Assembly: GCA_035512595.1 (NCBI GenBank)
Contig: DATKDU010000207.1
Location: forward strand, 4,889-68,888
Source: Pirellulaceae bacterium
Lineage (GTDB): Bacteria > Planctomycetota > Planctomycetia > Pirellulales > Pirellulaceae
Length of the DNA: 64,000 bases
Reading direction: 5' to 3'
Shown here: positions 34,234-54,577 of the stretch, piece after piece
Layout: each line of letters begins with the position of its first letter
How positions within the stretch are numbered: position 1 is the stretch's first letter
Translations under genes and position numbers: made by a program
The notes under the pieces: generated by a model
What the model was told of the DNA's origin: nothing
The model's database searches: none
What the model saw: only the letters and a program-made list of their open reading frames with translations

Positions 34234-34279
34234 AGAGCGACGGACGGGGCTCGAACCCGCGACATCCAGCTTGGGAAGC
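34234..34279 (-). repeat. att repeat: partial copy (3' half, anticodon loop to discriminator) of tRNA-Gly(CCC)
   Basis: agagcgacggacggggctcgaacccgcgacatccagcttgggaagc matches 54503-54548 at 44 of 46 positions. The 5' half of the tRNA is absent here. Confidence 0.9.
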
Positions 34280-34498
34280 AATGAGCAGGATGCCGCAAGT
34301 GAGAACCTGCCCGAACTTACGACGAGCAAATCGGCAGCTTGTACCAACGCTTGTACCGGCGAGGCGAAAAACGCCGAATTGGTGGCACCCGATCCGCAAG
34401 TGACGTTGATCATCGAGCGGTGGCCGCAGCTCACGCTCGCTGCCCGCCAAGCGGTGATGCAGATCGTGCTCGCCAACGCGCCGCACGGGGACGTCTGA
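34271..34498 (+). other. orphan ORF in the integrase reading frame across the att repeat (possible detached integrase 3' end)
   Basis: Begins TTG GGA AGC inside the att copy, the same codon phase as TTG GGA AGC TAG at the integrase end (54540-54551). Encodes ...ELVAPDPQVTLIIERWPQLTLAARQAVMQIVLANAPHGDV. Confidence 0.4.
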
Positions 34499-34722
34499 TG
34501 CCCACCGTCCGACATGGGCCAAATCCTGCTGGTGGTGTCCCAGCGACGATGACCGATCAGGATCCGGCCTTTCCACACTGGCGGCAAGCTGCGCCGTCCC
34601 TTCGCGGTCCAGCACAGCGGCAGAGGAACCTCCAGTGGCCAGCGTCGATTCGTTGTGGTTTTATCGTCGTCTGCTCGACCAGCCTGTTGGCGAGCCCCAA
34701 CTACCTCAGCGGGAAAGGACGA

Positions 34723-35151
34723 ATGATGGAACTGACAACCAGAGAACAAGCTACCGCCGTGCGGCTCGGAGAAGCATTGGCACAATTCCTCGTGGCGCTG
34801 GAAGAAGGTGCGGCCGCCCGCCAGGCGAAGCGACTGCTGAAGGACTCGCCCCCTTCGAGGGACCGCTCGACTACCAGCGAGCCGCAAAGCGGGAAGGAGC
34901 CGCCGGCGATGAAGGCGACGCCGACGACGATTCCAATTCAGCCGACAATCGGGATAGGCAGGGCGGAGCCCGAGCGGTTGCTCGTTGGCAGCCGAGAAGC
35001 AGCAAAGCTTCTTTCGATCAGCACTCGCTGCTTATGGGGGATGACCGCGCCCCGCGGTCCGCTACCGGCCGTCTACATGGGCAGGAGGGTCTTGTACGCC
35101 GTCGCCGACCTTGCCGCGGCCGTCGAGAAGCTGACGAAACGACAACGATAA
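34723..35151 (+). CDS. excisionase/MerR-like HTH DNA-binding protein
   Basis: C-terminal LLVGSREAAKLLSISTRCLWGMTAPRGPLPAVYMGRRVLYAVADLAAAV resembles excisionase-family HTH. Start is uncertain (ATG 34723 with RBS; alternative 34498). Confidence 0.6.
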   Translation: MMELTTREQATAVRLGEALAQFLVALEEGAAARQAKRLLKDSPPSRDRSTTSEPQSGKEPPAMKATPTTIPIQPTIGIGRAEPERLLVGSREAAKLLSISTRCLWGMTAPRGPLPAVYMGRRVLYAVADLAAAVEKLTKRQR

Positions 35152-35292
35152 GCCGGCGCCAAAAGGGGGGCCCCAACGCTCGGCGGATTTTGAGCCAGAC
35201 CCCCGGGGCTTCGCGGGTCCCCAAGGGCTGGCATAGTACCCTCGCAGAAATGTGCGTTTTTTGACCCTTCCACAAACCAGAAAGGACTAGAC

Positions 35293-35880
35293 ATGAACGA
35301 GAGCAAGATCGCGGCCACGGACCGCCTGCGCAAGGAAGGCCGCTGGGATGAAGCGTCCCGCTTTCGGGACGACGTCCGCAAGAAATTGCGGGAGGAGGGC
35401 TTGGCCCGAAATGAGGCCAGTGAAAAGGCGTGGCAGTCAATGCTCGACAAATTTCCGCCAAACCAGGAACCGGCCAACACGCGGAGCCTGCCGCGCCTGG
35501 AAATAGACGACGAGTCGTTGAAGGCCCTTGCTGAGCGAACACGAGACAAACGTGTGAATCTGGACGAGGACATCATCTGGGCCTATCTGAACTTGCGGAA
35601 CGAGAAGGTGTGCTTGGAAACGGCGCCCTCGATGGGTGCATTGACGATGCTGGATTACGCACGGGAGTTCCCCGACAACTTCTATCGCAATGTCCTCACC
35701 AAGGTTCGCGACTCCAAGACCAGCGAGCCGGAAAGTGGAGCGGAGATTCCGCGCAAAAGCATTGACGAGCTAAGGGCCTTGGCGGTGAGTCTCCGGGAAG
35801 AGTTGGAGCGGGAGCTGGCATCGAGGGAAGGCGAAGGAATGGCGTCCGTCCCGACGGTAGGCGGCCGTCTGACGCCTTGA
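35293..35880 (+). CDS. hypothetical island protein
   Basis: 195-aa charged/helical ORF starting MNESKIAATDRLRKEGRWDEASRFRDDVRKKL. No family assigned. Confidence 0.55.
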   Translation: MNESKIAATDRLRKEGRWDEASRFRDDVRKKLREEGLARNEASEKAWQSMLDKFPPNQEPANTRSLPRLEIDDESLKALAERTRDKRVNLDEDIIWAYLNLRNEKVCLETAPSMGALTMLDYAREFPDNFYRNVLTKVRDSKTSEPESGAEIPRKSIDELRALAVSLREELERELASREGEGMASVPTVGGRLTP

Positions 35881-36056
35881 AGGTTCGCCGCTCCTGCGTG
35901 GAAAGCCCGTGCGCCAACTCGTCACTCCGGCTCCGCGATTTCGACGCACGGGGGCCCGAGCCATACCCACGCCCCGACCCTACTGATCCCGTCGTTGGCT
36001 CGCTAGGTGAACTCCCTTGATGCGCAGTGGACTATCAACTTCCGTCGTGAGCGGGA

Positions 36057-36296
36057 CTACGAACACGTCTTCGCACGCTTCGAGTTCGTGTGCTGCCCGC
36101 GGATTGCATGGTGAAGGCCGGCAGTATTTGCGCCACTGCGCTTTGGAAAGTCGGCAGCCACTCCCAGGCAGAGCCCCTGATCCAGAACCTGCTGGGCGAC
36201 GCGACGCCAGAGTCCTGACGCCGTCGTTAGCGACAACAGCCCCGAGTTCTTGATGCCCTGCGACTTCTTCTGGTTGACCATGCCCGGTAGCCTCAT
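36057..36296 (-). CDS. possible 79-aa coupled ORF, or a frameshifted continuation of the disrupted gene upstream
   Basis: ATG 36296-36294 overlaps the TGA of the upstream frame (ATGA). MRLPGMVNQKKSQGIKNSGLLSLTTASGLWRRVAQQVLDQGL. Confidence 0.3.
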   Translation of the reverse strand: MRLPGMVNQKKSQGIKNSGLLSLTTASGLWRRVAQQVLDQGLCLGVAADFPKRSGANTAGLHHAIRGQHTNSKRAKTCS

Positions 36297-36953: not shown

Positions 36954-36961
36954 CAGCACTG

Positions 36962-37747
36962 CTACGGCATTGGCGCGATTACAACCTTTACGCAGAAACC
37001 ATCGGTTGTCCTCGAAAGGTCCGCCTCCAGGCCCGCTGGATTCGCAATGCGGTTTTCGGGGTCGTACACGAAACAGATTAGGTACTTGCAGCCAGGGTGT
37101 CTTTGATACTTGGCGATATCCAAAATCAGTTCTTCCCCGATCTTCCTTGCGTCCAGTCCTTTTCGCGTCTTTTTCAATTCAACGACGATCTGTGAATCCT
37201 TGAGCAGAAAGTCCATCCGTGCGGAACCACCCGCATAGCTTGGCGTCCATTCCTCGGCACGAATGTCGTCGAAGAACAACCTCAAGAGCGAGTGCATTAG
37301 GTCCTGCACGTCGTATTCATCAGTAATGTCGAGCGTGGGACGATCGGCGTGTCGCGCACGAAGCTGTCGAACCACGGCATGAAAGCGATTGCAAATCTGC
37401 TCGACAATCGCCACGGATTCCTCAAGATCGGCCTCCGCGTGGCGAACCTCAGGCATTCCAAACTGTTCGATCTCCCAAATAAACGAGCGAAGAACTTTTT
37501 TAGACTTGTCAACTCCCGCCTTGAAAGCTTGGATCTCTGGATTAGGATCACCGAGTCGGCAGATGCCGTAAAACTGAAAATCGACCGTCATTAAGTCCTG
37601 GGAATGGTGGGAGTCTTCCCCGAAGATCTGATCGAGGACTGTGCGGCACTTTCGTCGCCAGGCATCGACATTCGTCGGCTTCCGCTTTACGGCATCGGCC
37701 TCTTCGATCAAGCCTTTGATCAGGGTAGTTGCGGCGGCTGCATCCAC
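36962..37747 (-). CDS. PD-(D/E)XK nuclease-fold protein
   Basis: 261 aa. C-terminal half YDVQDLMHSLLRLFFDDIRAEEWTPSYAGGSARMDFLLKDSQIVVELKKTRKG fits a D...(D/E)xK core (D in MDF, ELK). Helical N-terminal half. AT-richer than its surroundings by eye. Confidence 0.7.
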   Translation of the reverse strand: MDAAAATTLIKGLIEEADAVKRKPTNVDAWRRKCRTVLDQIFGEDSHHSQDLMTVDFQFYGICRLGDPNPEIQAFKAGVDKSKKVLRSFIWEIEQFGMPEVRHAEADLEESVAIVEQICNRFHAVVRQLRARHADRPTLDITDEYDVQDLMHSLLRLFFDDIRAEEWTPSYAGGSARMDFLLKDSQIVVELKKTRKGLDARKIGEELILDIAKYQRHPGCKYLICFVYDPENRIANPAGLEADLSRTTDGFCVKVVIAPMP

Positions 37748-37787
37748 GGAGGTGGTTACTCCCTTCCCATCCAGAACCCGGTCATCG

Positions 37788-39278
37788 TCATTTACCTAGC
37801 TTCCCCGCAATCGCCTGAAACTGCTCTAGCGCCGTCTCCAGGTCGTCGGCAATCTCTGCCGCCAGAACGTCGGGCTCGGGCAGATCCTCGGAGTCCTCCA
37901 GGCTCTTGTCCCTGAGCCAGAAGATGTCCAGGTTCACCTTGTCCCGCTTGATCAGCTCTTCGTAGTCGAACTGCCGCCAGCGCCCCTCCGGGTTCTTGTC
38001 CGCGTCCCACTTGGCTTTCCGCTGGTGGCGCTTGCCGGGCCGGTAGCACTCAACGAACTCGTCCAGGTCGGCTCTGCTCATCGGGTTCGTCTTCTGGGTG
38101 AAGTGCATGTTGGTCCGCAGGTCGTAGACCCACAGCTTGCTCGTCCACGGCTTCTCCTGCGCCGGCTTGGCGTCGAAGAACAGGACGTTGGCCTTCACCC
38201 CCTGGGCGTAGAAGATGCCGGTCGGCAGCCGCAACAGCGTATGCACGTCGCACTGCGTCAGAAGGTTGCGGCGGACCGTCTCGCCGGCCCCTCCCTCGAA
38301 CAGCACGTTGTCCGGCACGACGATCGCGCAGCGGCCGTTGATCTTCAGCAGCGTCTTGACGTGCTGCACGAAGTTGAGCTGCTTGTTCTTGGTCGCGGTC
38401 CAGAAATCCTGCCGCTCGTAGGCGTGCTCCTCTTTTTCCAGGTCCCCCTCCTCGTTGACGATGGCGATGCTGCTCTTCTTGCCGAACGGCGGATTGGTGA
38501 CCACGACGCTGAACCGCTCCCCCGGATCGCCGGCCAGGCTGTCCACCCCCGACTTGATCGGGCACGGGTCGGCGTCGATGCCATGCAGGTACAGGTTCAT
38601 GATGCAGAGGCGGGCCGTGTTGGGGACCAGCTCCCATCCCTTCACGAACTTCGTCCGCAGGTGCTTCTTCTGGTCCTTGTCCAGTTCCTTGCCGAAGTGG
38701 GACACGACGTAGCTGTATGCCGCCAGTAGAAAGCCGCCGGTCCCCGCCGCCGGATCGCAGACCGTGTCCCCCGGCCCCGGCTGCACGCAATCGACGATCG
38801 CCTTGATCAGCTCCCGCGGCGTGAAATACTGCCCGGCCCCTTTAGGGGACTCCTCGGCACTCTTGGCCAGCAGCCCCTCGTAGATGTCCCCCTTCACGTC
38901 GGCATCCATGCTCGACCACTTGACCGGCTCGATCAGATCCACGATCAACCGCCGCAGCGTCGCCGGGTTCTGGATGTCCATCCGCGCCTTCTTGAAGATT
39001 TCGCCGAGCATCCCCGGCTGCTTCCCCAGTTCCTCCAGGCAGTGGCGGTAGTGGACTTCCAGCTCGTCCCCCTCGAGCTTGAGGAGCGCCTCCCACGAGT
39101 ATTTTTTGGGGACGATGGGGGGCCGGTTGTACGGGGCCTTGGTCAGCTCGTCGGCCATCTTCAGGAAGAGCAGGAAGGTGATCTGCTCGGTGTAGCCCAT
39201 GTACGACAGCCCGTCGTCGCGCAGGACGTGCGCGAAGTTCCAGGCTTTGGAGACGATTTGCTGGGAGAGGTTGCTCAT
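37788..39278 (-). CDS. hsdM: type I restriction-modification N6-adenine DNA methyltransferase subunit
   Basis: 496 aa. HsdM N-terminal domain, DPAAGTGGFL (motif I) and VVTNPPFG (motif IV). Confidence 0.95.
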   Translation of the reverse strand: MSNLSQQIVSKAWNFAHVLRDDGLSYMGYTEQITFLLFLKMADELTKAPYNRPPIVPKKYSWEALLKLEGDELEVHYRHCLEELGKQPGMLGEIFKKARMDIQNPATLRRLIVDLIEPVKWSSMDADVKGDIYEGLLAKSAEESPKGAGQYFTPRELIKAIVDCVQPGPGDTVCDPAAGTGGFLLAAYSYVVSHFGKELDKDQKKHLRTKFVKGWELVPNTARLCIMNLYLHGIDADPCPIKSGVDSLAGDPGERFSVVVTNPPFGKKSSIAIVNEEGDLEKEEHAYERQDFWTATKNKQLNFVQHVKTLLKINGRCAIVVPDNVLFEGGAGETVRRNLLTQCDVHTLLRLPTGIFYAQGVKANVLFFDAKPAQEKPWTSKLWVYDLRTNMHFTQKTNPMSRADLDEFVECYRPGKRHQRKAKWDADKNPEGRWRQFDYEELIKRDKVNLDIFWLRDKSLEDSEDLPEPDVLAAEIADDLETALEQFQAIAGKLGK

Positions 39279-39305
39279 TTTGTCTTTCGATGCATGGAGT
39301 GCGGC

Positions 39306-40817
39306 TTAGGCCCCCCCGACAAGTCCGAGCCCCGGCGCGAACATTGGATGCACGGCGAACCAGCGAGTGGCGGTTAACTCAACAGGATTGCTTGGATCGT
39401 AGGGAACCGCTTCGTCCGTTCTGCTCAACTTCACCCATAGAATGCCGCATTCAAGCAAGAGGCGGGCGAAAGCGCAGGGATCCTCGGAATAACCTCTTGC
39501 CCACGCATACCGATCTGCGCCGGGCTCATTCAAATCGACCTCCAGGGCTATGATTTCAAGGATGTTTTTCAAAGTGCCTAGTGGGAACTCCTTTTGACCT
39601 CCATTCATCTTTTTCACAATCCGCTCTAGGCCGGGATACTTGTACTCGAATTCGCCCGTAATCTCCTTGAGACGCTCGATCGAAAAGTCGCGGATGGCAG
39701 TTTCCATATCATGCTGTGTTATCTGCTTGTGTCCGTTGGTGTCTGCCGTGACCGCCGCGACTGTAGCCAATCGAATGGCTTCCCGCGGACGCCCATTCGA
39801 GTGCTTCCAAATTGCCTTGAAGGCGTCTTCTGGGAAAAGACCTCCCCATATTTCCTTGCGTTGCACCTGAAGTTTGAACAGGATTCTTTCCTCGACGATG
39901 GTACGAACCGAATCGAAGTCCCACCGCACTGGAATTACGACGTCGTGGAGTTTGTCTCGGTCAACGAGCGGCAAGGAGTTGTAGATATTCTCACGTAAGG
40001 CAACGATCGCCTTTAGGCGTGGTGGTCTGCTGAAGTGGCTCAAGCTGGTAAATAGCGATGCCAAGAAGGCGTTCTGCGTGGGAGTGTCGTTCCAGTAAAG
40101 ATCGAGATCGTCGATCAAGAGGTAATAGGAGTGCTTCACGTTATCGCGAAGTTTTCGCGCCACCGAATTCACCAGCGAAAGCAGATGGAGCGGCTCACCT
40201 GATTTCGCGTTCTCTTTATCCAGCACGGCCTTTCCCGTGATTTTTGCTCCGGCGTACTCGCCTGAAAGTTCGACTTCCTTTACTAGCTGAAGAATGCGGA
40301 CTGTCAGCGATGTTTCTTCGCCCTGGCTCATTGAGATGAGCTTTCTGGCTTCCTTTTCGAATTGGCCCCGAAAGATGTTAGTGAACCATCCGCTTAGTTC
40401 TGATGCGTTCGGAAACTCTCTTCTCAGGACCTCCATTGCGAGGACATAGTCCCAAAGGGCCTTGAAGAGCCACTGGTTCTTAGCCGACTCTGCGATGATG
40501 GGTGACGTTGCTTCCACGTTCGCGAGCGCCGAGAATGCGAGGTCGTCGGGACGGATGCTGATCACCCTGCATTCGCTTCCCGCCTTTGTAAGCTGCACCA
40601 TCTTCAGGATTGCCGATTTGCCCATGCCCTTTGGGCCGACAAAGAACGTAGCCGGGTCCTCGATGTCGATCGCGCGTCGCAAGTAGCGCTGTTCCGAAAC
40701 GTAATACTGGGCGAGATGTTCATCGTTCTCAGCAACAAGCCGCCCAAAATCGAGCGTGTCGTCTTCGGCGTTGAGCTTTAGGAGATTTCGTTCGCGGTCT
40801 TTGTTCTTCTTAGTCAT
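39306..40817 (-). CDS. P-loop NTPase of unassigned family embedded in the R-M operon
   Basis: 503 aa. Walker A GPKGMGKS (res 61-68) and Walker B YYLLIDDLD (res 231-239), about 165 residues apart. Helical C-terminal region. Visibly AT-richer. Confidence 0.85.
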   Translation of the reverse strand: MTKKNKDRERNLLKLNAEDDTLDFGRLVAENDEHLAQYYVSEQRYLRRAIDIEDPATFFVGPKGMGKSAILKMVQLTKAGSECRVISIRPDDLAFSALANVEATSPIIAESAKNQWLFKALWDYVLAMEVLRREFPNASELSGWFTNIFRGQFEKEARKLISMSQGEETSLTVRILQLVKEVELSGEYAGAKITGKAVLDKENAKSGEPLHLLSLVNSVARKLRDNVKHSYYLLIDDLDLYWNDTPTQNAFLASLFTSLSHFSRPPRLKAIVALRENIYNSLPLVDRDKLHDVVIPVRWDFDSVRTIVEERILFKLQVQRKEIWGGLFPEDAFKAIWKHSNGRPREAIRLATVAAVTADTNGHKQITQHDMETAIRDFSIERLKEITGEFEYKYPGLERIVKKMNGGQKEFPLGTLKNILEIIALEVDLNEPGADRYAWARGYSEDPCAFARLLLECGILWVKLSRTDEAVPYDPSNPVELTATRWFAVHPMFAPGLGLVGGA

Positions 40818-40875
40818 CGTGACTGCTCGTCGTAGTTAAGAAACTCGTCCGCGAAGCGACAGGAACTCCCAAGGA

Positions 40876-42444
40876 TTACCCAGCCGTTCGCGCAGCGGGA
40901 TTGGTTCGATTACGACCGGCCTTCGACCGGCCAGCAGCGCTCGCCCCATTCCTCTCGTCTCCCAAACCTAACCGTATTCGCTCCAGCAGCACGCTGGCCG
41001 GTTCGTCGTGGGGGTCTTGGGGGACGAGTTTCCCCTCGAAGGCCCGCTTGAGGATGCTCTGGCGGAGACGGGCGGCGCGGTGCAGTCCGTGGTCGATGGC
41101 AGTATCGGCCGCCTCGATCTGGGAGAGCCGCTCATCGAGTTGGGCGACGATTTCTCGCTGTTCGGAGGGGGGCGGAACTGAAACCGGGAACCGACGCAGA
41201 ATGCCGAGGTTGATCGAGGCCAGATTCGTTGTCTGCTTGCCAGCTTTAGTGAACCATTCCTGTCCAAACGTATTGCCGTGGTGCGAAACGAACCGGGATT
41301 GCATTTGCTTTGAGACCAGCCGGGCGCGGAAAATGTGGTTTTGGTGAATACACTCCAAGATTTCGCCTTCCCAAACCCACCCGCGACCGAGCTTATCCCG
41401 GTCGCCGCCTTCAGTGAAAAGGACGTCGCCAACTTCAAGTCGCAAGTCAACAATGTCCTCCTCGGGGGCAAAGATGTTTTTCATCTCGGAGAGGTCGAGA
41501 AACCCTCGCTGCACATTGGCGACTCGCAAATATGGAACTTCCCGCATCCCAGGTTGGTTGGACCGCTTTTGATCTTTTGTGATGCCGCCGACTAGATTGG
41601 CCAGCGCTTCAAGGGTCGCCCAGCACCAGCCCTTGGGCAGCTCGGGCAGGTTGGTCGTATCCGGCGACGCGGGCTCGACGTACTTGGCCCGCCAGTTCGT
41701 GGGGGGCGGTTTGCCGGCGGCGGCGAACTTGGCGAGTTGATCGGCTTCCCACTTGCGGCGGCGTTCGGCCAGGATCCGCTCCAGCAGCTTCGAGGCGGGC
41801 TCCACGTCCTTGTGCTTGGCCCGCCAGGCCGCGGTCAGCTTCCCCTTGACGGCCGCATTCAGGACGGCCGCCCGGTAACGCTTCAAGTTCGCCTTGGCCC
41901 GCTCCAGTGCCGCCACGCCCGCATCCAGGTCGGAGAACAGTTCCTCGATCTTCTCGACGATCCGGCGCTGCTCGCTGAGCGGAGGTACGGGGAACTCCAC
42001 TCGTGACAGTGCCTTTCCGGTCAAGTGCTTGATGGTCGTCCCCGTGTAATGCGGCGCGAAACGGTTGGTGATCGTCCCGTAGTAGAGGTAGTACATCGCA
42101 AACGAGGGGTCATATTCCTCGGGGCGAAAACGAATCCGATGGAGCGCCTTTTGGATTTTGGCGGATGCCGCTTGACCCTTCCAAACGGCTGCCCGACCGG
42201 GTTCGCCCCCTTCGCAAATCACAAGGTCGCCCGGCTGAAGGCCGAACCGCGATTCCTCGTCGGCCTCGAATCGCATTTCTTTCATGTCGCTAAGATCGAA
42301 TGTAAACCACCGCACGTTGACGTTACGCAGGTAGGGTTGCAGTGAGCCGCGATTCTTCTGCTTGTCGAGCATCTTCCCGAGACACATTTCGGCAGCAACC
42401 AAGGTCAGGGGCAACGCTGGCCACGGAAATCCATTTGCACTCAT
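40876..42444 (-). CDS. hsdS: type I R-M specificity subunit
   Basis: 522 aa. Two target-recognition halves separated by conserved helices (PPLSEQRRIVEKIEELFSDLDAGVAALERAKANLKRYRAAVL; PPPSEQREIVAQLDERLSQIEAA). ATGA overlap with hsdR. Confidence 0.9.
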   Translation of the reverse strand: MSANGFPWPALPLTLVAAEMCLGKMLDKQKNRGSLQPYLRNVNVRWFTFDLSDMKEMRFEADEESRFGLQPGDLVICEGGEPGRAAVWKGQAASAKIQKALHRIRFRPEEYDPSFAMYYLYYGTITNRFAPHYTGTTIKHLTGKALSRVEFPVPPLSEQRRIVEKIEELFSDLDAGVAALERAKANLKRYRAAVLNAAVKGKLTAAWRAKHKDVEPASKLLERILAERRRKWEADQLAKFAAAGKPPPTNWRAKYVEPASPDTTNLPELPKGWCWATLEALANLVGGITKDQKRSNQPGMREVPYLRVANVQRGFLDLSEMKNIFAPEEDIVDLRLEVGDVLFTEGGDRDKLGRGWVWEGEILECIHQNHIFRARLVSKQMQSRFVSHHGNTFGQEWFTKAGKQTTNLASINLGILRRFPVSVPPPSEQREIVAQLDERLSQIEAADTAIDHGLHRAARLRQSILKRAFEGKLVPQDPHDEPASVLLERIRLGLGDERNGASAAGRSKAGRNRTNPAARTAG

Positions 42445-45194: not shown

Positions 45195-45818
45195 GCGGTC
45201 GTCCGGCAACTGCCTGCCGACGAGGAGAGCCAGCGACCCCACGAAAACCGCCGCGCCCGCCCATTGCCAGCCAGAGACAGAAAGTGACAAGGCGACGCCC
45301 ATTGTGGAGTCACCCGCCGCGGGATGCAAGCACTTTTCTGCCAGGACCGGGGCCAATATCGCGGGGGGCGCAACAAAAACGGCCCTCCGGTGGGGCAGGA
45401 ACCGGAAGGCCGCGATGCGTAGCCGCAAGCGGCCAGCACTCGACACAATATTCGTCGCCCGAGTCAATTGAAGCGCGGGAATGCCGGCATTTGTTCGCGG
45501 CATTCGGCCGCAGTAAGATGGACCTCACCCACGCACGGGTGAGTGTGAATCCAAACTCGATTTGAGGACCAACCTAGCGCAATAACGAACCAGAGCACAA
45601 GCGTGTAGTGAAGTTTCTGCTTCCCAGTAAACAGCCAACCTGAGCCGCAAGGCTCTTGATCTACAGAAGCAGTGCTTGCGCCACGCTCCCGCAAGGGAGC
45701 GTCGGCCAGGTGCTGTTCTGTAGGCCCCTTGGCTGGGGTACTGGGAGCGGCCCTGCGTTCGGCGCTCCTTTTTTCGTCGGCTGATCGAATGGCGGTCAGC
45801 AGCGGGAGATTCCTGACG

Positions 45819-47795: not shown

Positions 47796-47850
47796 AATGG
47801 ACGGGGGCCGCGGGGGTGTTTCGGGACCTGACAGCCATTGGAGACAAGCC

Positions 47851-48855
47851 ATGCCAGCCAACGTCGGCGAGATGTTCTACTACGGAGAGATTCCCTGGCA
47901 CGGCAACGGAACCGAAGTGGAGGCGCCGCTCGATTTCGCGTCTGCTGTCAAGTCTGCGGGCCTCGACTGGCAGGTGGCAAGCATCGACTTGCAAACGGCG
48001 GAAGATCCGCCCTCTCCCGCGGCCAGCCGGCAGGCGATTGTCCGCACCGACCGCCAGCCCGGCGACGTGGGCCGAGTGGTCGGGGTCGTCCATCCTGGCT
48101 TCCGTACGCTTCAGAACCATGACGCCGCGATGATCTTTGATTCGCTGTTTGGCCACGGTGAGCGGGTTTACCACACCGGCGGCTACTTGAACGACGGCCA
48201 GGTGGTGTGGCTGATGGCCAAACTGAACCGGCGGCTGTCGATCGGGACCAAGGACGACGTCGAGCCCTACGCCCTGATGGTCAACAGCCACGACGGCTCG
48301 TATCCCTTTTCGCTGAGCCTGACCACGATCCGGGTGGTCTGCCAGAACACGATCAACTTTGCGCTCCGGGAGTGTGACGTGCCCAAGTTCCGCCGGGCAC
48401 ACAAGGGGACCCCGAAGATGCACAAAGAGGCGGCCGCTGCCTATTGGAATCAAGTGCTGGGGGAGCTGGATCGGTTGGAGCAGGAGTTTCGCCAGCTCGC
48501 CCTTCGCCCCTGCTCGGACGAGCAAGTCCACCGGGCGCTCGAGAGTTTGTTCCCCTTGCCCAAGCCACTCGGCCTCGACCCGTCATTGCAACAGCAGCGG
48601 GCCTATGAGACTCGGCGAGAAACCGTCGAGCGCAGCCGCGCCATGATCCGCACGTTGCGGGAGTCCGGCGTGGGGTCCGACTTGACGACGGCCAGGGGCA
48701 CATTCTGGGGGGTACTGAACGCGATTACCGAGTACGTCGATCATCACCACGACTGCCAGGGGAGCCGGCTGGCGTATTCCTTGCTGGGGACGGGGAGCGC
48801 CATCAAGGCAAAGGCGTACCGGGTGATTCACGAGATGGCAAATCCGCCCGCGTGA
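47851..48855 (+). CDS. DUF932 (phage/plasmid-like, TIGR03299-type) protein
   Basis: MPANVGEMFYYGEIPWHGNG N-terminus and NSHDGSYPFSLSLTTIRVVCQNT core as I remember for DUF932. Confidence 0.8.
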   Translation: MPANVGEMFYYGEIPWHGNGTEVEAPLDFASAVKSAGLDWQVASIDLQTAEDPPSPAASRQAIVRTDRQPGDVGRVVGVVHPGFRTLQNHDAAMIFDSLFGHGERVYHTGGYLNDGQVVWLMAKLNRRLSIGTKDDVEPYALMVNSHDGSYPFSLSLTTIRVVCQNTINFALRECDVPKFRRAHKGTPKMHKEAAAAYWNQVLGELDRLEQEFRQLALRPCSDEQVHRALESLFPLPKPLGLDPSLQQQRAYETRRETVERSRAMIRTLRESGVGSDLTTARGTFWGVLNAITEYVDHHHDCQGSRLAYSLLGTGSAIKAKAYRVIHEMANPPA

Positions 48856-49036
48856 ACTAACACTGCTGTTTTCGCGCCTAGGGCATGCGACCTCATTCTG
48901 TAGGCGCGCTCGGTGTCAACGGGATACCTTATAAGTCGGCCCGCGACATCGCCTAGCGAGTGCTGGCGGTGTGAAACTGGGGAAGACGTGCATGCGCGAC
49001 CGGACCTTAGAGGGCGGCTGAAGGTAAACCCAAACG

Positions 49037-50119
49037 GTGGAGCTGTCCGCCGGGGCCCCTCGGGCGCGGGCGCGCGAGGGCAATCGAGCGGAGGAGATCG
49101 TGCAGGGCCGACCACCCAAAGAAGGTCCTCGGCGACCATCACAACTTACCGCAGGGCAGTTGAAGGATCCGCAGACGCGATTGCAGCGGCTGGCAGGCGT
49201 GCTGCAGATTTACTGCCGTTCGTTGATTTGGTCAATGAACGAGTTGCGCGGCTGGAAGCTCGGTGAGCCGCGCTGCCGCTTTGTGCTCTTGGAGGAAGAG
49301 TTGTGGGACCTGGGGATCGAAACAGTGGAGGATTTTTACTTTGCCGGCTGGGGCCAGCACACGGCAATTCTCAGGGCCCGCAAGCGCAGCCGGTCATTTG
49401 AGGGAAGTTTCAGCAAGTGCCGACTGAGGGAAAACTTAAAGCGCGTTAAGGGTCGGCGACGGCCGCAAATCACCCTAGTGCCGATAAGCTTGATCGACGT
49501 GTCTAGGGGTAAGAAATCCCGCGGACCGCAAAAGGTCGTGTTCACGAATCCGGACTGGGTGAAGCTGGTCGAGTTCATTCCTGGAGTCGAACATGTCCCC
49601 TCTTACGGGATTGCGCAGCATCTCCAGCACGCCTTTCATGATGCCGAGACGCCGCTGCTAGTCGCGGGATTCAAATGGGGGGGAACGCCGCTTTTCGAGC
49701 AGTGCGGCGACTGCGTTGCGTTTGACCAGTACGCGAAATCCCGCAGACTTCGGCCAACAACGGCGATCCGAAATCTGATTACATTCCGCGACAAGCAACT
49801 GGCCGAAATCGAGTCCGCCAGCCGGCAGCATGCGCAGCGTCCGCCGCCGACGCCCGAGGAGGAGGATGTGCTCATTGCCATGCTCGAACTTGGTGCGACG
49901 GACGCAAATCGGCGAACAACGAGCGACAAGATTGCCACTCATCGATCGAAAGGAGCTGGGAAAATGTCGCCACCATTGCGTGTCATCGCCCGTCTGGGGC
50001 GCATGGGTCTCGTGGAGAGCAAAAAGGGTGTTGGCGGCGGGTGCTGGCTGACCTTGTCCGGCAAGTGCCGAGCCGAACAGATACTGCATGCCAAAAAAGA
50101 TGTCATAAATCGAGCATAG
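49037..50119 (+). CDS. hypothetical island protein with C-terminal winged-helix-like region
   Basis: C-terminus VLIAMLELGATDANRRTTSDKIA...VIARLGRMGLVESKKGVGGGCWLTLSG looks MarR/wHTH-like. Start uncertain (GTG 49037, ATG 49235). Confidence 0.55.
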   Translation: MELSAGAPRARAREGNRAEEIVQGRPPKEGPRRPSQLTAGQLKDPQTRLQRLAGVLQIYCRSLIWSMNELRGWKLGEPRCRFVLLEEELWDLGIETVEDFYFAGWGQHTAILRARKRSRSFEGSFSKCRLRENLKRVKGRRRPQITLVPISLIDVSRGKKSRGPQKVVFTNPDWVKLVEFIPGVEHVPSYGIAQHLQHAFHDAETPLLVAGFKWGGTPLFEQCGDCVAFDQYAKSRRLRPTTAIRNLITFRDKQLAEIESASRQHAQRPPPTPEEEDVLIAMLELGATDANRRTTSDKIATHRSKGAGKMSPPLRVIARLGRMGLVESKKGVGGGCWLTLSGKCRAEQILHAKKDVINRA

Positions 50120-50197
50120 TTCGTCGTCGGGGTTGGTCACACAATTCGCCTGAGAGTACGGCAGGCACTGGGCTTGCCGAGAACTTCCTCAGGGAGA

Positions 50198-50879: not shown

Positions 50880-50906
50880 CCGCGGCTCCTGGCAGGAGGT
50901 TGTGCA

Positions 50907-52316
50907 GTGCCTCCAAAGAGTGCAATGCGTAGTGTAACTACGGCCGCCGCCGCTTCGCAATCGTCGGCGGCTGTTTTGATTCCAACTCCGCAACGGTCGT
51001 TACTCGACGCTGCCCGCGGTTATCGGCGGTGGGGCTGGTCGGTGATTCCCACGCGGGCCGACAATTACAAAGAGTCGTTGGTGCCATGGACGAAGTACCA
51101 GCAGGAATCGGCGCCAATCCGGGACATCGAGAAATGGTTTGCCAGCGACGCGACTGGTGGGGTCGCCGTGATACTCGGGCCTGCTTCAGGCGGGTTGGCA
51201 TGCCGCGATTTCGACGACCCTGCTGCCTACCAGTCGTGGCAGAGCAAAAACACAGATCTGTCGAGCCGGCTCCCTACGGTCAAGACGCGACGCGGCTACC
51301 ACGTGTACTTTCGGGTAGCGCCCGATGCGATGTTCAATCTACGCAGCGGGCTAAAGAAGTGGGGAGTTGGCGCTATCGTGCTCGGCGACGGTGAACTGCG
51401 TGCGGATCATGGGTGCTATACGGTATTGCCGCCGACGCCGTTTCCGGACGGTCGGTACACATGGTTGATTCCTGCGACAGGAAGTCCGTCGCAAGTTGAT
51501 CTATTCACGTCGGGATTACTTCCCCCAAAGGTGGTAGACCAAGTTCTTTTGAAAGTTGACACAGAGGACACAGACGACGCAGGACTACCCAGAAGACTCA
51601 AGCCATTGGTGGAGCCCTGTCTGACTGCGAGAAATGAATCACCAAACCACCATCACCACCATCTGCCGGCCCCCTCGCGCGCGGCCCCTGACGGATTCCC
51701 GAAGCAGCAACAATCCAACCCCAAGGGGTCGCCTCACTGGACACGCGACGGACAAGGGACGCTCAAGCAGGAGATTGACCAGATCATCGCTCGCACGATC
51801 CCGACTTCTGAGCACACGCGGAATCGCCAGCTCTTTTTGCTGGCCCGTGAGTTGAAGTCGCTGCCACAGTATTGCATGGCGTCTCCTGAAGGCATGGAAG
51901 GCGTTGTGCGGGAGTGGCATCAACGTGCGCTGCCCGCAATCGCGACGAAAAGTTGGCTGGTGACTTGGACGGAGTTCAAGCAAGCCTGGAAAAAGGTGAA
52001 GCATCTCAAGGGACGGGAGCCGCTGCGGATGATGTTCTCTCAGGCTATGCAACGGGATCTGCCTAAATGTGCAGAGCGGTTCGCCGACGATCCGCAGGCG
52101 CAGTGGCTGATTGCCCTTTGCCGCGAACTCCAGGAGGCGGCGCCTGGCAAGCCCTTTTATTTGTCCTGCCGCGCCGCCGGAGAACTGGTAAAGCTCAGTC
52201 ATACCGCGGCGAACACACTGATTTGCGGACTGGTCGAGGAGGAAATCCTCAAGCTGGTCAAAAAGGGAGATCATCGAGCGCGACAGGCCAGCGAGTTTCG
52301 GTACCTCGGGGATTGA
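50907..52316 (+). CDS. bifunctional DNA primase/polymerase (PrimPol N-terminal domain) protein
   Basis: LLDAARGYRRWGWSVIPT...KESLVPWTKYQQESAP...IEKWF...GVAVILGPASGGLACRDFDD pattern. Start at GTG 50907 or ATG 50925. Confidence 0.8.
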   Translation: MPPKSAMRSVTTAAAASQSSAAVLIPTPQRSLLDAARGYRRWGWSVIPTRADNYKESLVPWTKYQQESAPIRDIEKWFASDATGGVAVILGPASGGLACRDFDDPAAYQSWQSKNTDLSSRLPTVKTRRGYHVYFRVAPDAMFNLRSGLKKWGVGAIVLGDGELRADHGCYTVLPPTPFPDGRYTWLIPATGSPSQVDLFTSGLLPPKVVDQVLLKVDTEDTDDAGLPRRLKPLVEPCLTARNESPNHHHHHLPAPSRAAPDGFPKQQQSNPKGSPHWTRDGQGTLKQEIDQIIARTIPTSEHTRNRQLFLLARELKSLPQYCMASPEGMEGVVREWHQRALPAIATKSWLVTWTEFKQAWKKVKHLKGREPLRMMFSQAMQRDLPKCAERFADDPQAQWLIALCRELQEAAPGKPFYLSCRAAGELVKLSHTAANTLICGLVEEEILKLVKKGDHRARQASEFRYLGD

Positions 52317-52327
52317 CGAGTAGTGGA

Positions 52328-52356
52328 TTGACAGCCACCAATGAAATGTGTAATAT
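52328..52356 (+). promoter_or_regulatory. consensus-like sigma70 promoter of the XRE-like gene
   Basis: TTGACA (52328-33), 17-nt spacer, TAATAT (52351-56). The ATG lies only ~11 nt after the -10. GTGTAA-n6-TTACAC inverted repeat spans the -10. Confidence 0.6.
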
Positions 52357-52366
52357 CTGTTACACT

Positions 52367-52729
52367 ATGAGCAAGCATCCTTTGATGACTGACGTGTTGC
52401 GGAAAACAATCAATAAAAGCGGCGAGTACTTCTTGACGCTGGAACAGGCGACCGGAATCAAGCGGCAGTCGCTCATGAAATTCGCCCGTGGCGAGCAGTC
52501 GCTGCGGCTGGACATGGCTGACAAGCTGGCGGAGTTTTTTGGGTTGGTACTCACGGAAGATTCCCGCCGGCCCGCCAAAGGGAGCAAGCAGTTGCAGCAA
52601 GCAGCGAGGACCAGGAAGCTGCGGAGTCTCGCTGAACTGGCCAAGCAGGGGCTGGAGGCCGTGAAGGTCAAGGATTTCGGCACGGTGAAAAAGATCCTCA
52701 ACAAGATTCAGAGGCTGGGGGACGTCTAG
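52367..52729 (+). CDS. XRE/Cro-like HTH regulator
   Basis: 120 aa. YFLTLEQATGIKRQSLMKFARGEQSLRLDMADKLAEFFGL is an HTH_XRE-like pattern. Confidence 0.65.
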   Translation: MSKHPLMTDVLRKTINKSGEYFLTLEQATGIKRQSLMKFARGEQSLRLDMADKLAEFFGLVLTEDSRRPAKGSKQLQQAARTRKLRSLAELAKQGLEAVKVKDFGTVKKILNKIQRLGDV

Positions 52730-52763
52730 CGTTCTCCGTTACTTGACGAAGGTCAGAATCAAC

Positions 52764-54551
52764 ATGGCTAGTGTATACCGCGAAACGTTCACTAAACCGC
52801 TGCCGGCTGGCGCCGAGACCATTGTCCGCAAGGGGGAGCGATTGGCTCGGTGGAAGGACGCCAAGGGGAAGGTGAGGACCTCGCCCGTTACGACCGGCAA
52901 GGACGGTACCGAGCGGATTGTGGTCATGGCGGCGACGTACACGGCGAAGTACCGCGACGCCAACCACAATTTGTGCAAGGTCTCGACTGGTTGCCGTGAC
53001 GAAACGAATGCGCGCCAGGTGCTGGCCGAGCTGCTCAAACGTGTCGAGCGGGTCAAGGCATTGATGCTGACGCCGGCGGAAGACGCCATGATTGATCACC
53101 GGAAGCGACCGTTGGCGGAGCACATTTCGGCCTACCTGACCTACTTGGAGTCGTGCAACGCCTCGCCAGTCCATCGGGAGAACGTCGAGCGCTGCCTGAC
53201 GGTCCTGGCTGCCGACTGCAAGTTCGAGAATCTGTCGGACTTCCGACGGGAGTCTCTGGAAATCTGGCTCGTCCAGCAATCGAAGGTGCGGAAGAGCCCC
53301 GAAGGGAAGGAGATTTGGACCAAGAGCGCTCGGACGCGCAATTCTTACCGGGCAGCCATCGTCGCCTTCTGCAACTGGTGCGTGGCCACCGAACGGTTGC
53401 TGGCCAACCCGTTCACACGGGTAGCCAAGGCTGACGAAAAGTCCGATCCACGGCGGCACCGGCGGGCGCTGACCGAGGAGGAGCTCGGGCGGCTGCTTGT
53501 AGTGGCGAGGATGAGGCCGCTGGCTGAGTGCGGCCGCGACACGGTCAAGCGGCAGGAGCCCGACGCCGACGAAGGGAAGCGGGGCGGCTGGACCTATGCC
53601 CCGCTCAATTACAAAGACCTGGAGTCGGCAACGGCCAAGGCGCGGGAGCGGCTCGCCAAGCACCCGCTCAAGATCGCGGAGCTGGAGGCGGTTGGCCAGG
53701 AGCGGGCCATGATCTACAAGACGCTGGTGCTGACCGGCCTGCGGAAGGGAGAGCTGGCGTCGCTGACTGTGGGGCAATTGCACCTTGACGGCCCGCGACC
53801 TTACGCCGAACTTGATGCCGCCGACGAGAAGAACCGCCAGGGCTCACAGATTCCGCTACGGCGCGATTTGGCGGACGAACTTGCTTTGTGGGTTGAGGAG
53901 AAGCGAAATCGCCTCCAAAGTAGTCCAGGAGCGTCTGAGGGGCATATTTGTCTGCCGATGACTGCAGCGACCATCCTGCCAGCCGATACTCCCCTGTTCG
54001 ACGTGCCGGACGGGCTAATCCGGATTCTCGATCGCGACCTGAAGGCCGCCGGGATTCCCAAAAAGGACCAGCGGGGAAAGACGGTCGATGTTCACGCCCT
54101 GCGGCACAGCTTCGGCACGCTGCTGTCGAAGGGGGGCGTGGCGCCGCGGACCGCACAGGCGGCGATGCGGCACTCGTCGATCGACCTGACCATGAACACG
54201 TACACCGATCCGAAGCTCTTGGACGTGCATGGTGCCCTCGACGCGCTCCCGCAACTCCCTCTTTCGGCGGATCCTTCTGCACGCGCAATCGATGCAAAGG
54301 CAACTGGCACCGACGACTTCGGTCCCTCGCCGCTTGTACCAACGCTTGTACCAGCGGCTGACAATCGCGGTGATTTGCTGCCATTTGCTGCCCCATCGGC
54401 AAGCGGAGCTATGAGCAGCGAACGTCGCCAGAGCCGCGACGTAAGTGGTTGCGGTGACAAAAGAAAAAACCCGCTGCCACATTCAGACAGCGGGTGTCAT
54501 CGAGAGCGACGGACGGGATTCGAACCCGCGACATCCAGCTTGGGAAGCTAG
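52764..54551 (+). CDS. tyrosine site-specific integrase
   Basis: VHALRHSFGTLL and AMRHSSIDLTMNTYTD (H-x-x-R ... Y catalytic set). A long Ala/Pro/Ser-rich tail reads antisense through the tRNA (RTGFEPATSSLGS) and stops immediately after the att repeat. Confidence 0.9.
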   Translation: MASVYRETFTKPLPAGAETIVRKGERLARWKDAKGKVRTSPVTTGKDGTERIVVMAATYTAKYRDANHNLCKVSTGCRDETNARQVLAELLKRVERVKALMLTPAEDAMIDHRKRPLAEHISAYLTYLESCNASPVHRENVERCLTVLAADCKFENLSDFRRESLEIWLVQQSKVRKSPEGKEIWTKSARTRNSYRAAIVAFCNWCVATERLLANPFTRVAKADEKSDPRRHRRALTEEELGRLLVVARMRPLAECGRDTVKRQEPDADEGKRGGWTYAPLNYKDLESATAKARERLAKHPLKIAELEAVGQERAMIYKTLVLTGLRKGELASLTVGQLHLDGPRPYAELDAADEKNRQGSQIPLRRDLADELALWVEEKRNRLQSSPGASEGHICLPMTAATILPADTPLFDVPDGLIRILDRDLKAAGIPKKDQRGKTVDVHALRHSFGTLLSKGGVAPRTAQAAMRHSSIDLTMNTYTDPKLLDVHGALDALPQLPLSADPSARAIDAKATGTDDFGPSPLVPTLVPAADNRGDLLPFAAPSASGAMSSERRQSRDVSGCGDKRKNPLPHSDSGCHRERRTGFEPATSSLGS

Positions 54552-54577
54552 TGCTCTACCAACTGAGCTACCGTCGC
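54505..54577 (-). tRNA. tRNA-Gly (anticodon CCC)
   Basis: Hand-folded GCGACGG-TA-GCTC-AGTTGGTA-GAGC-A-CTAGC-TTCCCAA-GCTGG-ATGTC-GCGGG-TTCGAAT-CCCGT-CCGTCGC-T. Perfect acceptor stem, discriminator U, CCA not encoded. Confidence 0.9.

Follow-up and report, generated by a model that had tools for sequence, protein, structure and literature searches.

In Myxococcus phage Mx8, the attP site lies inside the 3' coding part of int, and integration gives int a new 3' end (PMC6070905, PMC4383910). In the SSV-type integrases of archaeal viruses and plasmids, the recombination site lies in the int ORF and the gene is split on integration (PMC7253208, PMC4383910). Classical tDNA islands (Islander signature; P4-type integrases) carry an intact tRNA gene and a displaced 3' fragment at their ends, with a tyrosine integrase proximal to the restored tRNA, and in most of them int is confined to one side of attP. 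For mycobacteriophages BPs and Brujita, Broussard et al. in Mol Cell in 2013 are said to have described integration-dependent immunity, where attP crosses the repressor gene and a degradation tag is lost.

Within the window (the whole stretch of DNA that was analysed, 64 kb), positions 34234-54548 are very probably one integrative element inserted in a single tRNA-Gly(CCC) gene through site-specific recombination by a tyrosine recombinase, and this high probability applies to the whole explanation jointly, namely the insertion, the position of attP within int and the truncation of Int on integration. As in Mx8, attP lies within the 3' part of int and the target is a tRNA gene, and as in the SSV type the recombination site is within the integrase ORF. 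In the SSV type, however, the N-terminal part is split from the catalytic part and the gene is inactivated ('suicidal'), whereas here only a C-terminal extension beyond the catalytic tyrosine is lost and the catalytic protein stays intact. The ends of the island are those of a classical tDNA island, but int extends across attP, and the arm sites on either side are part of its coding sequence. As in BPs and Brujita, attP lies in a coding sequence, the C-termini differ between the free and the integrated state, and the product reports the physical state of the element; the crossed gene is the integrase rather than a repressor, and no degradation tag is evident.

The boundaries of the island are given by the tRNA gene, a partial copy of it and a terminator:

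54504..54577, minus strand: tRNA-Gly(CCC), regenerated by integration, sole copy in the assembly (ARAGORN, genome search)
34234..34279, unstranded: attL core, displaced tRNA-Gly(CCC) 3' fragment of 46 bp, anticodon stem to 3' end (44/46 identity)
54503..54548, unstranded: attR core, within the intact tRNA-Gly(CCC)
54464..54500, minus strand: intrinsic terminator hairpin for the regenerated tRNA, element-supplied and within the tail of the int ORF (direct sequence reading)

The tRNA-Gly(CCC) was the only tRNA called by ARAGORN in the 64-kb window, which confirmed the gene folded by hand in the first-pass annotation, with a start one base away from the 54505 given there. In the whole 6.9-Mb assembly only two near-identical copies of its sequence were found (75/75 and 44/46), and the next-best match, at 83% identity, is a different tRNA. 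The 46-bp duplication of the tRNA 3' end claimed earlier was recovered in direct orientation between 34234..34279 and 54503..54548 with 44/46 positions identical, against a chance expectation of about 2e-19 for 64 kb and both strands (our own arithmetic). This block of identity, running from the anticodon region to the 3' end, corresponds to the 'A' sublocation (PMC4383910). The two mismatches, GC at 34249-50 against AT at 54518-19, fall on T-loop positions 59-60 of the tRNA. The left copy was also checked as part of a second full tRNA gene, which the first-pass annotation had named as evidence against an island; no tRNA was called there and the sequence 5' of it is unrelated, indicating a displaced 3' fragment. 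The att copies are 20,269 bp apart, and the integrated unit 34234-54548 is made up of 20,223 bp specific to the element and a single 46-bp core (20,269 bp). The proposed check of GC content revealed an atypical composition, with 61.1% in the island and 63.2 +/- 0.8% in random 20-kb segments of the genome.

The integrase gene and the arm-type repeats are arranged around these cores as follows:

52764..54551, plus strand: tyrosine integrase as encoded in the integrated state, 595 aa (Pfam Phage_integrase at 50.2 bits, cut-off 27.1)
34280..34498, plus strand: detached 3' segment of int (C-terminal extension, 72 codons and a stop), without a start codon of its own
34337..34357, plus strand: P-arm arm-type repeat, GCTTGTACC-AAC-GCTTGTACC
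54332..54352, plus strand: P'-arm arm-type repeat, identical to 34337-34357 and read as LVPTLVP within Int

The integrase is intact, and the catalytic residues R..HxxR..H..Y are all present in its translation. The first-pass annotation had it abutting the tRNA; an intact tyrosine integrase does lie at the tRNA-proximal end, but its ORF runs through the P' arm and the att core, shares 48 nt with the core and tRNA, and ends at a TAG (54549-54551) inside the tRNA on the antisense strand. The segment of Int encoded by the core contains ..TGFEPATSSLGS.., and the stop follows directly after the core, leaving a host-encoded replacement tail of zero residues, unlike in Mx8. Segment 34280..34498 is in the int frame solely in the excised circle, and at the rebuilt attP junction the int frame is open for 72 codons, compared with 0 and 40 for the other frames; its GC1/2/3 values of 0.65/0.47/0.74 show a GC3 periodicity that supports coding. 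The Int predicted from the excised circle has 667 aa, and the integrated form has 595 aa with the last 72 residues removed.

The whole attP, about 300 bp long, sits within the 3' part of the integrase gene and consists of two 9-bp arm-type repeats, 150 bp, the 46-bp core, 57 bp and the same two repeats. The full 21-nt match GCTTGTACCAACGCTTGTACC is found on both arms, and its 20-nt core CTTGTACCAACGCTTGTACC occurs at 34338-34357 and 54333-54352 and nowhere else in the window, with 0 occurrences expected by chance. Arm repeats are identical across both arms within each element and differ between elements, the relatives carrying their own element-specific matched pairs. The intact tRNA, the displaced 3' fragment, the tRNA-proximal integrase and the matched arm repeats are thus all present, in agreement with the 20-kb island in tRNA-Gly(CCC) proposed from the first reading. 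That the junctions are an artefact of metagenome assembly, with contigs falsely joined at the 46-bp repeat, is hardly credible. The assembly is fragmented (573 contigs, 92% complete), which speaks for it, but both junctions are exactly as expected of integration, both island ends carry the same element-specific arm repeat, the repeat copies differ at 2 positions, and the same architecture is present in dozens of independent assemblies.

Almost all of the 72 relatives of the integrase have a convergent tRNA downstream, with 14 isoacceptor types represented, and at most loci the int ORF stops 47-65 nt into the tRNA. Between the catalytic tyrosine and the tRNA (median 299 nt), the int frame is free of stops at 33/38 loci and the other two frames at 3/76. 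Across loci, the ORF runs into the tRNA in each of the three frames, yet it is always back in one and the same frame in the far-arm segment. In 5/38 relatives int ends about 20 aa past the catalytic tyrosine, indicating that the tail is not essential for catalysis. Complete islands of 7-10.5 kb bounded by 46-56-bp tRNA-3' repeats were present in seven relatives. The rebuilt attP junctions extended the int ORF in 8/8 cases, by 59-106 codons, and the int frame was the longest of the three in 7/8. The extensions of these eight rebuilt elements share a layout, (A/V)CTx(A/V)CT and then, beyond this arm repeat, a conserved amphipathic C-terminal helix at the end. The apparent protein motif (A/V)CTx(A/V)CT is the translated arm-type DNA repeat, so part of the apparent protein conservation is DNA conservation. 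A tail motif (K-rich/PL..V.G) at the terminator hairpin is also kept in relatives.

A natural contiguous attP form, P0003, was found on a metagenome contig (L123), with the same core and no tRNA; it encodes 653 aa, was called as one gene by the gene caller, and is 55% identical to the rebuilt Int of the window over residues 1-627. Its arm repeats have the spacing seen in the window, 274 bp. Since spacings of 253 and 274 bp preserve the reading frame as well as the helical phase, these two constraints are not fully separable.

It is unlikely that the overlap of int with att and its extension in the circle are an accident of a stop-poor, high-GC genome, with protein function ending near the catalytic tyrosine and the downstream conservation reflecting attP DNA signals only (arm sites, terminator and core). 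The five relatives with an early stop fit such an accident, as do the low-complexity tail, with its conserved 'motifs' located at the arm repeat and the terminator hairpin, and the absence of significant similarity between the C-terminal extension and that of Mx8. The frame bias of 33/38 against 3/76, the constant return to one far-arm frame, the amphipathic helix beyond the arm repeat, the predominance of the int frame in 7/8 junctions and the calling of the 653-aa form as a single gene on a natural contig all argue against it. At the level of sequence, the att-spanning layout of int is conserved in this integrase family across Planctomycetota, extending it to a family as a whole, with 14 or more tRNA specificities, in a phylum other than that of the Mx8 host.

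In the sequence of Mx8 Int, the catalytic tyrosine is followed by about 60 aa, TGLEP (T-loop antisense, tRNA core) and about 105 aa, the same layout as in the island Int. The two proteins are 23% identical (E 3e-4) in the catalytic domain only, which is a generic tyrosine-recombinase similarity, and no similarity was detectable between their C-terminal extensions.

The crossover probably takes place toward the anticodon end of the 46-bp core, because both attL/attR mismatches are in the T-loop, away from that end. On integration, the element would provide a replacement tRNA 3' half together with a terminator, and the older 3' half would be displaced by 20 kb. The excised circle would encode the 667-aa Int, and integration would detach the last 72 codons and place a tRNA-derived TAG as the stop, giving the 595-aa form. 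By analogy with the change from IntP to IntX in Mx8, the full-length Int, made from the circle alone, may be the efficient integrase, and the truncated Int may have an altered or lower activity, with excision helped by a small HTH factor.

The only congeneric genome, G001, has the same tRNA-Gly(CCC) adjoining the same isomerase gene. None of the island proteins was found at this tRNA in G001, and ordinary metabolic genes lie downstream. It is not a pristine form of the empty site sought in a related genome: its distal side is rearranged, and about 70 nt after the tRNA resemble the P' arm of the element in the window, indicating that the history of the site is longer than a single recent insertion. 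This scar points to an old association of the element family with the site, and would fit a fixed, immobile remnant inherited vertically since before the split of the sister species and kept for its defence cargo, as would the difference of attL and attR at 2/46 positions and the failure to find the excised form in exact-pattern scans of metagenome contigs. Such a remnant is a minority possibility. Against it, the int ORF is unbroken and retains every catalytic residue, both arms carry identical 21-bp repeats, and the 72-codon segment that was split off has kept an open reading frame in phase with int. The att copies in the window are 96% identical, while the orthologous flanks of G000 and G001 are 72-86% identical, and both mismatches lie outside the presumed crossover region, as do those in the relative L052. 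An integrated element that may still be mobile is the preferred reading.

The remaining genes of the island are:

34723..35151, plus strand: HTH_17 (AlpA/excisionase-type) protein, candidate recombination directionality factor, start codon uncertain
36962..37747, minus strand: DpnII/MboI-type restriction endonuclease-fold protein (Pfam PF18742, E 5e-58; PADLOC Aga_Helical-REase)
37788..39278, minus strand: HsdM, type I R-M methyltransferase (Pfam N6_Mtase, E 1e-66, and HsdM_N; PADLOC MTase_I, E 8e-186)
39306..40817, minus strand: Sll1717-family P-loop ATPase between hsdS and hsdM (NCBIfam NF047389, 215.9 bits against a cut-off of 75; Pfam AAA_16 weak)
40876..42444, minus strand: HsdS, type I R-M specificity subunit (Pfam Methylase_S; PADLOC Specificity_I, E 3e-121)
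42441..45503, minus strand: HsdR, type I R-M restriction subunit (Pfam ResIII, EcoEI_R_C; PADLOC REase_I)
45672..47795, plus strand: trypsin-like serine protease with C-terminal TPR repeats (Pfam Trypsin_2, E 6e-26, and TPR; phrog_11383)
47797..48855, plus strand: DUF932 / TIGR03299 phage/plasmid-like protein (Pfam PF06067, E 1e-42; TIGR03299, 191 bits against a cut-off of 110.7; phrog_1221)
49037..50119, plus strand: candidate regulator with a weak winged-HTH (Rrf2-like) C-terminus (Pfam Rrf2, E 9e-5, below cut-off)
50907..52316, plus strand: PrimPol (archaeo-eukaryotic primase-type) replication protein (Pfam Prim-Pol, E 6e-15; PHROG DNA primase)
52346..52729, plus strand: small XRE-type HTH protein directly upstream of int, start codon uncertain (Pfam HTH_3 weak)

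The accessory content read earlier (regulators, PrimPol, DUF932, protease and R-M) was supported by Pfam, PADLOC, PHROGs and NCBIfam, and the type I R-M system is complete (HsdR/S/M); together with the Sll1717-type ATPase and the DpnII-like nuclease it forms the cargo. The HTH_17 match is weak (Pfam E 0.002, below cut-off), and the GC3 frame signal supports coding; the protein is 43% identical over 30 aa to the Mx8 excisionase Uoi (E 0.013), a weak similarity that suggests a small HTH excisionase as in Mx8. The small XRE-type HTH protein is a conserved partner of int, located by tblastn immediately before it at 25 related loci. Replication of the circle is presumably the task of the PrimPol, and relatives carry other primase/helicase modules.

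In ORFs tiling the 20-kb island, PHROGs gave no terminase, portal, capsid or tail family, and Pfam gave neither a relaxase nor a type IV secretion family, and in this the island differs from Mx8, a 49.5-kb tailed phage. The integrase, the regulators, the primase and a DUF932/TIGR03299 protein, which is common on phages and plasmids, could also belong to a prophage or an integrative conjugative element rather than a satellite-like or mobilisable island; given the missing virion and conjugation families, a size of 20 kb, with relatives of 7-10 kb, that is too small for either class, and the lack of a close match among 50,697 phage records, this is very unlikely. The combination of an integrase, small HTH regulators, a primase-type protein and defence cargo with no virion or conjugation genes resembles P4-like and PICI-like satellites and integrative mobilisable elements, and unlike in these, no helper-exploitation genes, cos/pac site or oriT were identified in the island. 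With neither capsid nor conjugation genes found, the island probably relies on another element for its transfer and is probably satellite-like or mobilisable.

The island is flanked by a HAMP-PAS-GGDEF-EAL protein on one side and a xylose-isomerase-like TIM-barrel protein on the other. These genes confirm the flanks described in the first-pass annotation, but the flank next to attL is not purely chromosomal and contains:

34124..34234, minus strand: remnant of a family B tRNA-targeting integrase element (structured leader or P' arm), just outside the island

This segment is matched by covariance model R1 (96 bits, E 7e-25) and aligns with 17 other copies placed after various tRNAs and before an integrase, and covariation was found in the family B element. 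The hairpin previously taken for the terminator of the GGDEF-EAL gene is instead helix 4 of this conserved, covarying element. In the remnant, the integrase start codon has changed from ATG to AGG, and the gene itself has been lost. The same tRNA-Gly(CCC) was probably used earlier by an older element from another integrase family, whose leader remnant now lies just outside attL.

A single tRNA gene was called in the window by ARAGORN, tRNA-Gly(CCC) at 54504-54577 on the minus strand. A 46-bp block spanning the 5' strand of its anticodon stem to one base beyond its 3' end (54503-54548) recurs on the same strand, in direct orientation, at 34234-34279, with 44 of 46 bases identical. Both mismatches (34249-50 GC vs 54518-19 AT) are in the T-loop. 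The whole 6.9-Mb, 573-contig assembly was searched and contains these two near-identical copies only; the duplication is confirmed as real and far above chance. The intact tRNA with its displaced 3' copy, as described in the first-pass annotation, was thus borne out by ARAGORN and the assembly search. Membership of the left copy in a second full tRNA gene, which would have contradicted that description, is excluded, since no tRNA was called by ARAGORN at 34234; no tRNA-like sequence continues 5' of this copy, and an Rfam scan of 33800-34600 gave no match, even to the tRNA fragment there.

Under the Islander signature, a tDNA island of 2-200 kb is delimited by a full tRNA gene and a piece of that tRNA lying in direct orientation, with a tyrosine integrase ORF inside it or overlapping it. 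Here tRNA, fragment and integrase are all present and the unit is 20,269 bp long, so the region carries the signature of a tDNA-integrated genomic island. Mismatches between the att copies are all in the T-arm, both in the window and in a relative (L052), while the anticodon-side part is identical. This pattern agrees with strand exchange close to the anticodon loop, at the end of the core called sublocation 'A' in the Islander classification (PMC4383910). The element supplies the 3' half of the functional tRNA.

The following features were assigned, from left to right, to ORFs tiling 34280-54502.

Features of the island in left-to-right order
First from left, 34723-35151: HTH_17 (excisionase/AlpA-type) protein, weak match
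Next: several hypothetical proteins
Within 36962-45503, minus strand: DpnII/MboI-fold nuclease, before HsdM
37788-45503, minus strand: HsdM, then Sll1717-family P-loop ATPase, then HsdS and HsdR
Next: trypsin-like protease with TPR repeats, then DUF932/TIGR03299 protein
Next: weak winged-HTH protein, then PrimPol
52346-52729: small XRE-type HTH protein, then the integrase at the right end
52764-54551, plus strand: tyrosine integrase (Pfam PF00589, 50.2 bits vs cut-off 27.1)

Domain matches agreed with the accessory content reported earlier between the att copies (regulators, PrimPol, DUF932, protease and R-M). HsdR, HsdM and HsdS are encoded together and all three subunits were matched by both Pfam and PADLOC; the cargo is predicted to be a type I restriction-modification system with all three subunits. 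In the operon encoding it (36962-45503, minus strand), a Sll1717-family P-loop ATPase (NF047389) is located between hsdS and hsdM, and the DpnII/MboI-fold nuclease-domain protein after hsdM matches the Argonaute-associated 'Helical-REase' models of PADLOC. The R-M operon, ATPase and nuclease possibly form a composite defence system.

No relaxase, coupling protein or type IV secretion families were found among the ORFs tiling 34280-54502, and judged by these three components the island would not be classed as an integrative conjugative element. No virion structural families were found among the PHROG matches of the island ORFs. An integrase with HTH regulators and PrimPol, lacking virion and conjugation genes, matches the gene set of a phage satellite or integrative mobilisable element; no helper element, pac/cos site or oriT was recognised for the island. 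Composition is also atypical, as the proposed GC and k-mer check showed: island GC is 61.1% vs 63.2 +/- 0.8% for random 20-kb segments of the genome, below 99.7% of them, and by tetranucleotide distance from the genome the island ranks in the top 6%.

The integrase (Int) carries the motifs LTGLRKGE, HALRHSFG, AMRHSS and MNTYTD (R, HxxR, H/W and the Tyr nucleophile), and its PF00589 alignment covers profile positions 24-168 of 172, indicating a tyrosine recombinase with complete catalytic residues. In the species-representative genome collection, 72 relatives were found, nearly all in Planctomycetota MAGs (Pirellulales, Planctomycetaceae, Thermoguttaceae, Phycisphaerae, Brocadiaceae and others). 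A convergent tRNA, of 14 isoacceptor types, directly follows int in almost every relative locus with enough sequence. Seven relatives are complete islands of 7.3-10.5 kb within the fetched flank, each bounded by a 46-56-bp tRNA-3' direct repeat; the window shows the same repeat signature, so the members of the int family are genuine tRNA-integrating elements. The conserved partner, found in 25 loci, is the small HTH gene immediately preceding int; the remaining cargo is variable. Replication modules recur, with PrimPol in the window, a Zn-ribbon/Toprim/DUF3987 primase-helicase in L069, and an AEP-like primase plus DnaB-like helicase in L044. IMG/VR contained only two distant relatives, both short-tailed and without a tRNA, and no close relative was found in the phage collection, which gave only about 28% identity to streptococcal satellite integrases over the catalytic domain.

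The first-pass annotation placed the integrase against the intact tRNA; adjoining is confirmed, but the two do not merely abut. The int ORF overlaps the tRNA in antisense, reading across the terminator hairpin and all 46 bp of the core to give the peptide ..RERRTGFEPATSSLGS, and its stop codon (TAG, 54549-54551) is the first triplet beyond the identity block, contributed by the tRNA 5' half. In most loci of the family, the int ORF extends 47-65 nt into the tRNA, whichever of the three frames it takes relative to that gene. As a control, stop codons were sought between the catalytic Tyr and the tRNA (median distance 299 nt): the int frame has none in 33 of 38 loci, compared with 3 of 76 for the two other frames of the same DNA. 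This places the att core inside the predicted int ORF, downstream of the catalytic Tyr, in the window and 33/38 relatives. Overall, the island-in-tRNA interpretation was upheld with two corrections, this overlap in place of abutment and the nature of the left flank.

The attP of the window and of the seven complete relatives was rebuilt in silico by joining the right end to the left end. In the window the predicted circle junction reads 54502 | core | 34280, and the repaired tRNA site would read 34233 | core | 54549. The int ORF was prolonged in all eight cases, by 59-106 codons (72 in the window), and the int frame was the longest of the three in 7/8 junctions. All eight extensions share one layout, namely a short linker, (A/V)CTx(A/V)CT, a variable acidic stretch, and a C-terminal amphipathic helix (..LLxL..DRxRLAAML.. 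or ..LPLSDxxKAEAVRRLL..). The detached extension segments have no start codon of their own, and the one in the window (34280-34498) is coding-like, with GC1/2/3 of 0.65/0.47/0.74. The free (attP) form would hence encode a longer Int, of 667 aa in the window against 595 aa for the integrated copy, whose C-terminal segment would be detached by integration.

A natural contiguous attP form is represented by P0003, a 653-aa protein on L123 (a JGI metagenome contig of 3039 bp), in which the Gly(CCC) core without a tRNA is followed by ACTNACT and then the terminal helix; it shares 55% identity with the rebuilt window protein over residues 1-627. Int, core and extension are also in one uninterrupted ORF, with no tRNA, at L080 (102-1514) and L064 (9959-11944). 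L123, L080 and L064 are copies of related elements in the attP form, either free or tandem. L080 shares its MAG with L072, another member of the family that is integrated. Neither the attP junction predicted for the window nor the left end of the island was found by exact-pattern scans of metagenome contigs.

The window contains exactly two copies of the sequence GCTTGTACC-AAC-GCTTGTACC, one at 34337-34357 on the P arm (the left island end) and one at 54332-54352 on the P' arm (the right end). Each relative has its own version of the double repeat on both arms, e.g., GTTTGCACC, GTTTCCACC or GCTTGCACC. Start-to-start spacing of the arms is 250, 253 or 274 bp, every value being 1 modulo 3. The repeats are identical within an element and different between elements, as expected of arm-type binding sites co-evolving with the integrase, and are candidate arm-type Int-binding sites. 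Translation yields LVPxLVP from the P'-arm copy and ACTxACT from the P-arm copy, so that some of the apparent protein conservation is conservation of DNA. Two features nevertheless argue that the C-terminal extension is translated, namely the terminal helix that follows the repeat and the preserved reading frame.

For phage Mx8 of Myxococcus xanthus, attP is documented inside int and integration gives the gene a new 3' end (PMC6070905), and the authors of the Islander paper note that the integrases of Mx8 and SSV extend across attP (PMC4383910). The proposal of two Int forms in the window follows the Mx8 precedent. The parts of Mx8 Int come in the order seen in the window Int, and they include the T-loop antisense peptide TGLEP with about 105 residues after it, but the kinship is generic: within the catalytic domain, BLASTP gave 23% identity across 189 aa (E 3e-4). 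No Myxococcus phage was among the tblastn matches listed against phage records at E 1e-3, and the planctomycete extensions did not significantly resemble the C-terminal segment of Mx8. In SSV-type integrases, unlike the window Int, integration disrupts the enzyme. In the integration-dependent immunity of mycobacteriophages, the gene crossed by attP is the repressor, whereas in the window it is the integrase gene.

A tentative reading, to which we give slightly less than even weight, is that the int family, with at least 14 tRNA specificities, uses attP-in-int as a physical-state switch: full-length Int would be made from the free circle only, the C-terminal helix would be needed for efficient integration, the truncated Int of the integrated copy would be biased to staying put or excision, and both sets of arm sites would be doubly encoded in the int frame. 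If true, this would make the Mx8 arrangement, a curiosity of a single phage, a general means of controlling recombination direction across the phylum.

Mobile elements that sit in a tRNA gene and carry defence genes are ordinary, but the island is a cleanly delimited example of a tRNA-borne element in Planctomycetota, for which no description of such elements was found in the literature searched. An attP within int, with the C-terminus rewritten on integration, is not peculiar to one myxophage and is conserved across an integrase family with many tRNA targets, which provides natural variants for testing C-terminal tuning of tyrosine-recombinase direction. The compact int-attP cassettes with predictable tRNA targets could be used as genetic tools for planctomycetes. 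Annotation pipelines would label the integrated int 'complete', overlooking its detached 3' segment.

The flank outside attL had been taken as ordinary chromosome, which needs correction. The 110 nt at 34124-34234 (minus strand) match sequences directly after many different tRNAs in the order, each of which leads into a Shine-Dalgarno and the ATG of an integrase gene in the same orientation; these tyrosine integrases belong to another family (MPRLT..PKYRKHRASGQAVVT.., here family B). A second tRNA or a native tRNA trailer at this position was ruled out by ARAGORN and alignment in favour of the leader of this second integrase family. The element is about 115 nt long (loci L014-L018, L035, L109-L119 and L124-L153) and folds into an outer stem around two hairpins plus a terminator-like hairpin (four helices), the last of these 15-25 nt before the SD and ATG. 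Compensatory changes were found in 13/24 pairs, and 0/500 shuffles reached any measure; many pairs are G-U on the minus strand only, which points to RNA. Of 151 genomes in the order, 93 carry the element according to a covariance model, and among 30 fetched loci it is directly after a tRNA in 27 and directly before an integrase in 21. There was no Rfam match. The element is a new candidate cis-regulatory leader, which may control integrase expression from tRNA read-through.

The window copy has AGG in place of the integrase ATG and lacks the rest of the gene, which makes it a remnant; tRNA-Gly(CCC) had already been used at an earlier time by this second element family. The hairpin described before as the own terminator of the GGDEF-EAL gene is helix 4 of the remnant, but it is symmetric and may still serve both directions. 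Two further copies are present in the same genome, one after tRNA-Met with a broken integrase (C286:13295-13403, 63-aa ORF) and one after tRNA-Pro(CGG) with an integrase ORF of 429 aa (C194:29781-31186).

Same-genus comparison was made with one genome, G001. Its tRNA-Gly(CCC) adjoins the isomerase-like gene that flanks the tRNA in the window (86% identity), none of the island proteins was found in it by tblastn, and ordinary genes, encoding DUF1501, 2-hydroxyacid dehydrogenase, GFO/IDH/MocA oxidoreductase and luciferase-like monooxygenase, lie downstream, indicating that the 20 kb is present in one congener and not the other. The distal flank is rearranged, in that the block homologous to window 54436-63664 is inverted in G001 and directly abuts the GGDEF-EAL gene. 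The inversion runs from the tRNA to at least 63664 (G001:C3, L033/L034), and one breakpoint falls after the stop codon of the GGDEF-EAL gene (34057) and before the remnant of family B (about 34100). In addition, 4.5 kb of G001 (C3:9965-14538) is missing from the window.

The first ~70 nt after the G001 tRNA (C3:15805-15875; L034 806-876) resemble the island-side 54436-54503, unlike the sequence outside attL; they include the tRNA's terminator hairpin, with no integrase left. These nucleotides could suggest that the terminator region is native chromosome, but this was rejected because the terminator-bearing stretch is conserved in the tail of int-family members in other genera; the ~70 nt are probably the scar of an earlier element of that family. 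G001 is therefore no clean example of the empty tRNA-Gly site looked for in relatives: island proteins are absent at its tRNA, but the distal flank is rearranged and P'-arm-like sequence remains.

In the stretch that separates the tRNA from the isomerase-like gene, a G+C-rich unit of about 22 bp (GACGCCCCCCGCTCNCCTG) stands in tandem at 54704-54779. At least six other contigs of the same genome, and other genomes of the order, carry it at 86-97% identity, and it reads as a dispersed short repeat.
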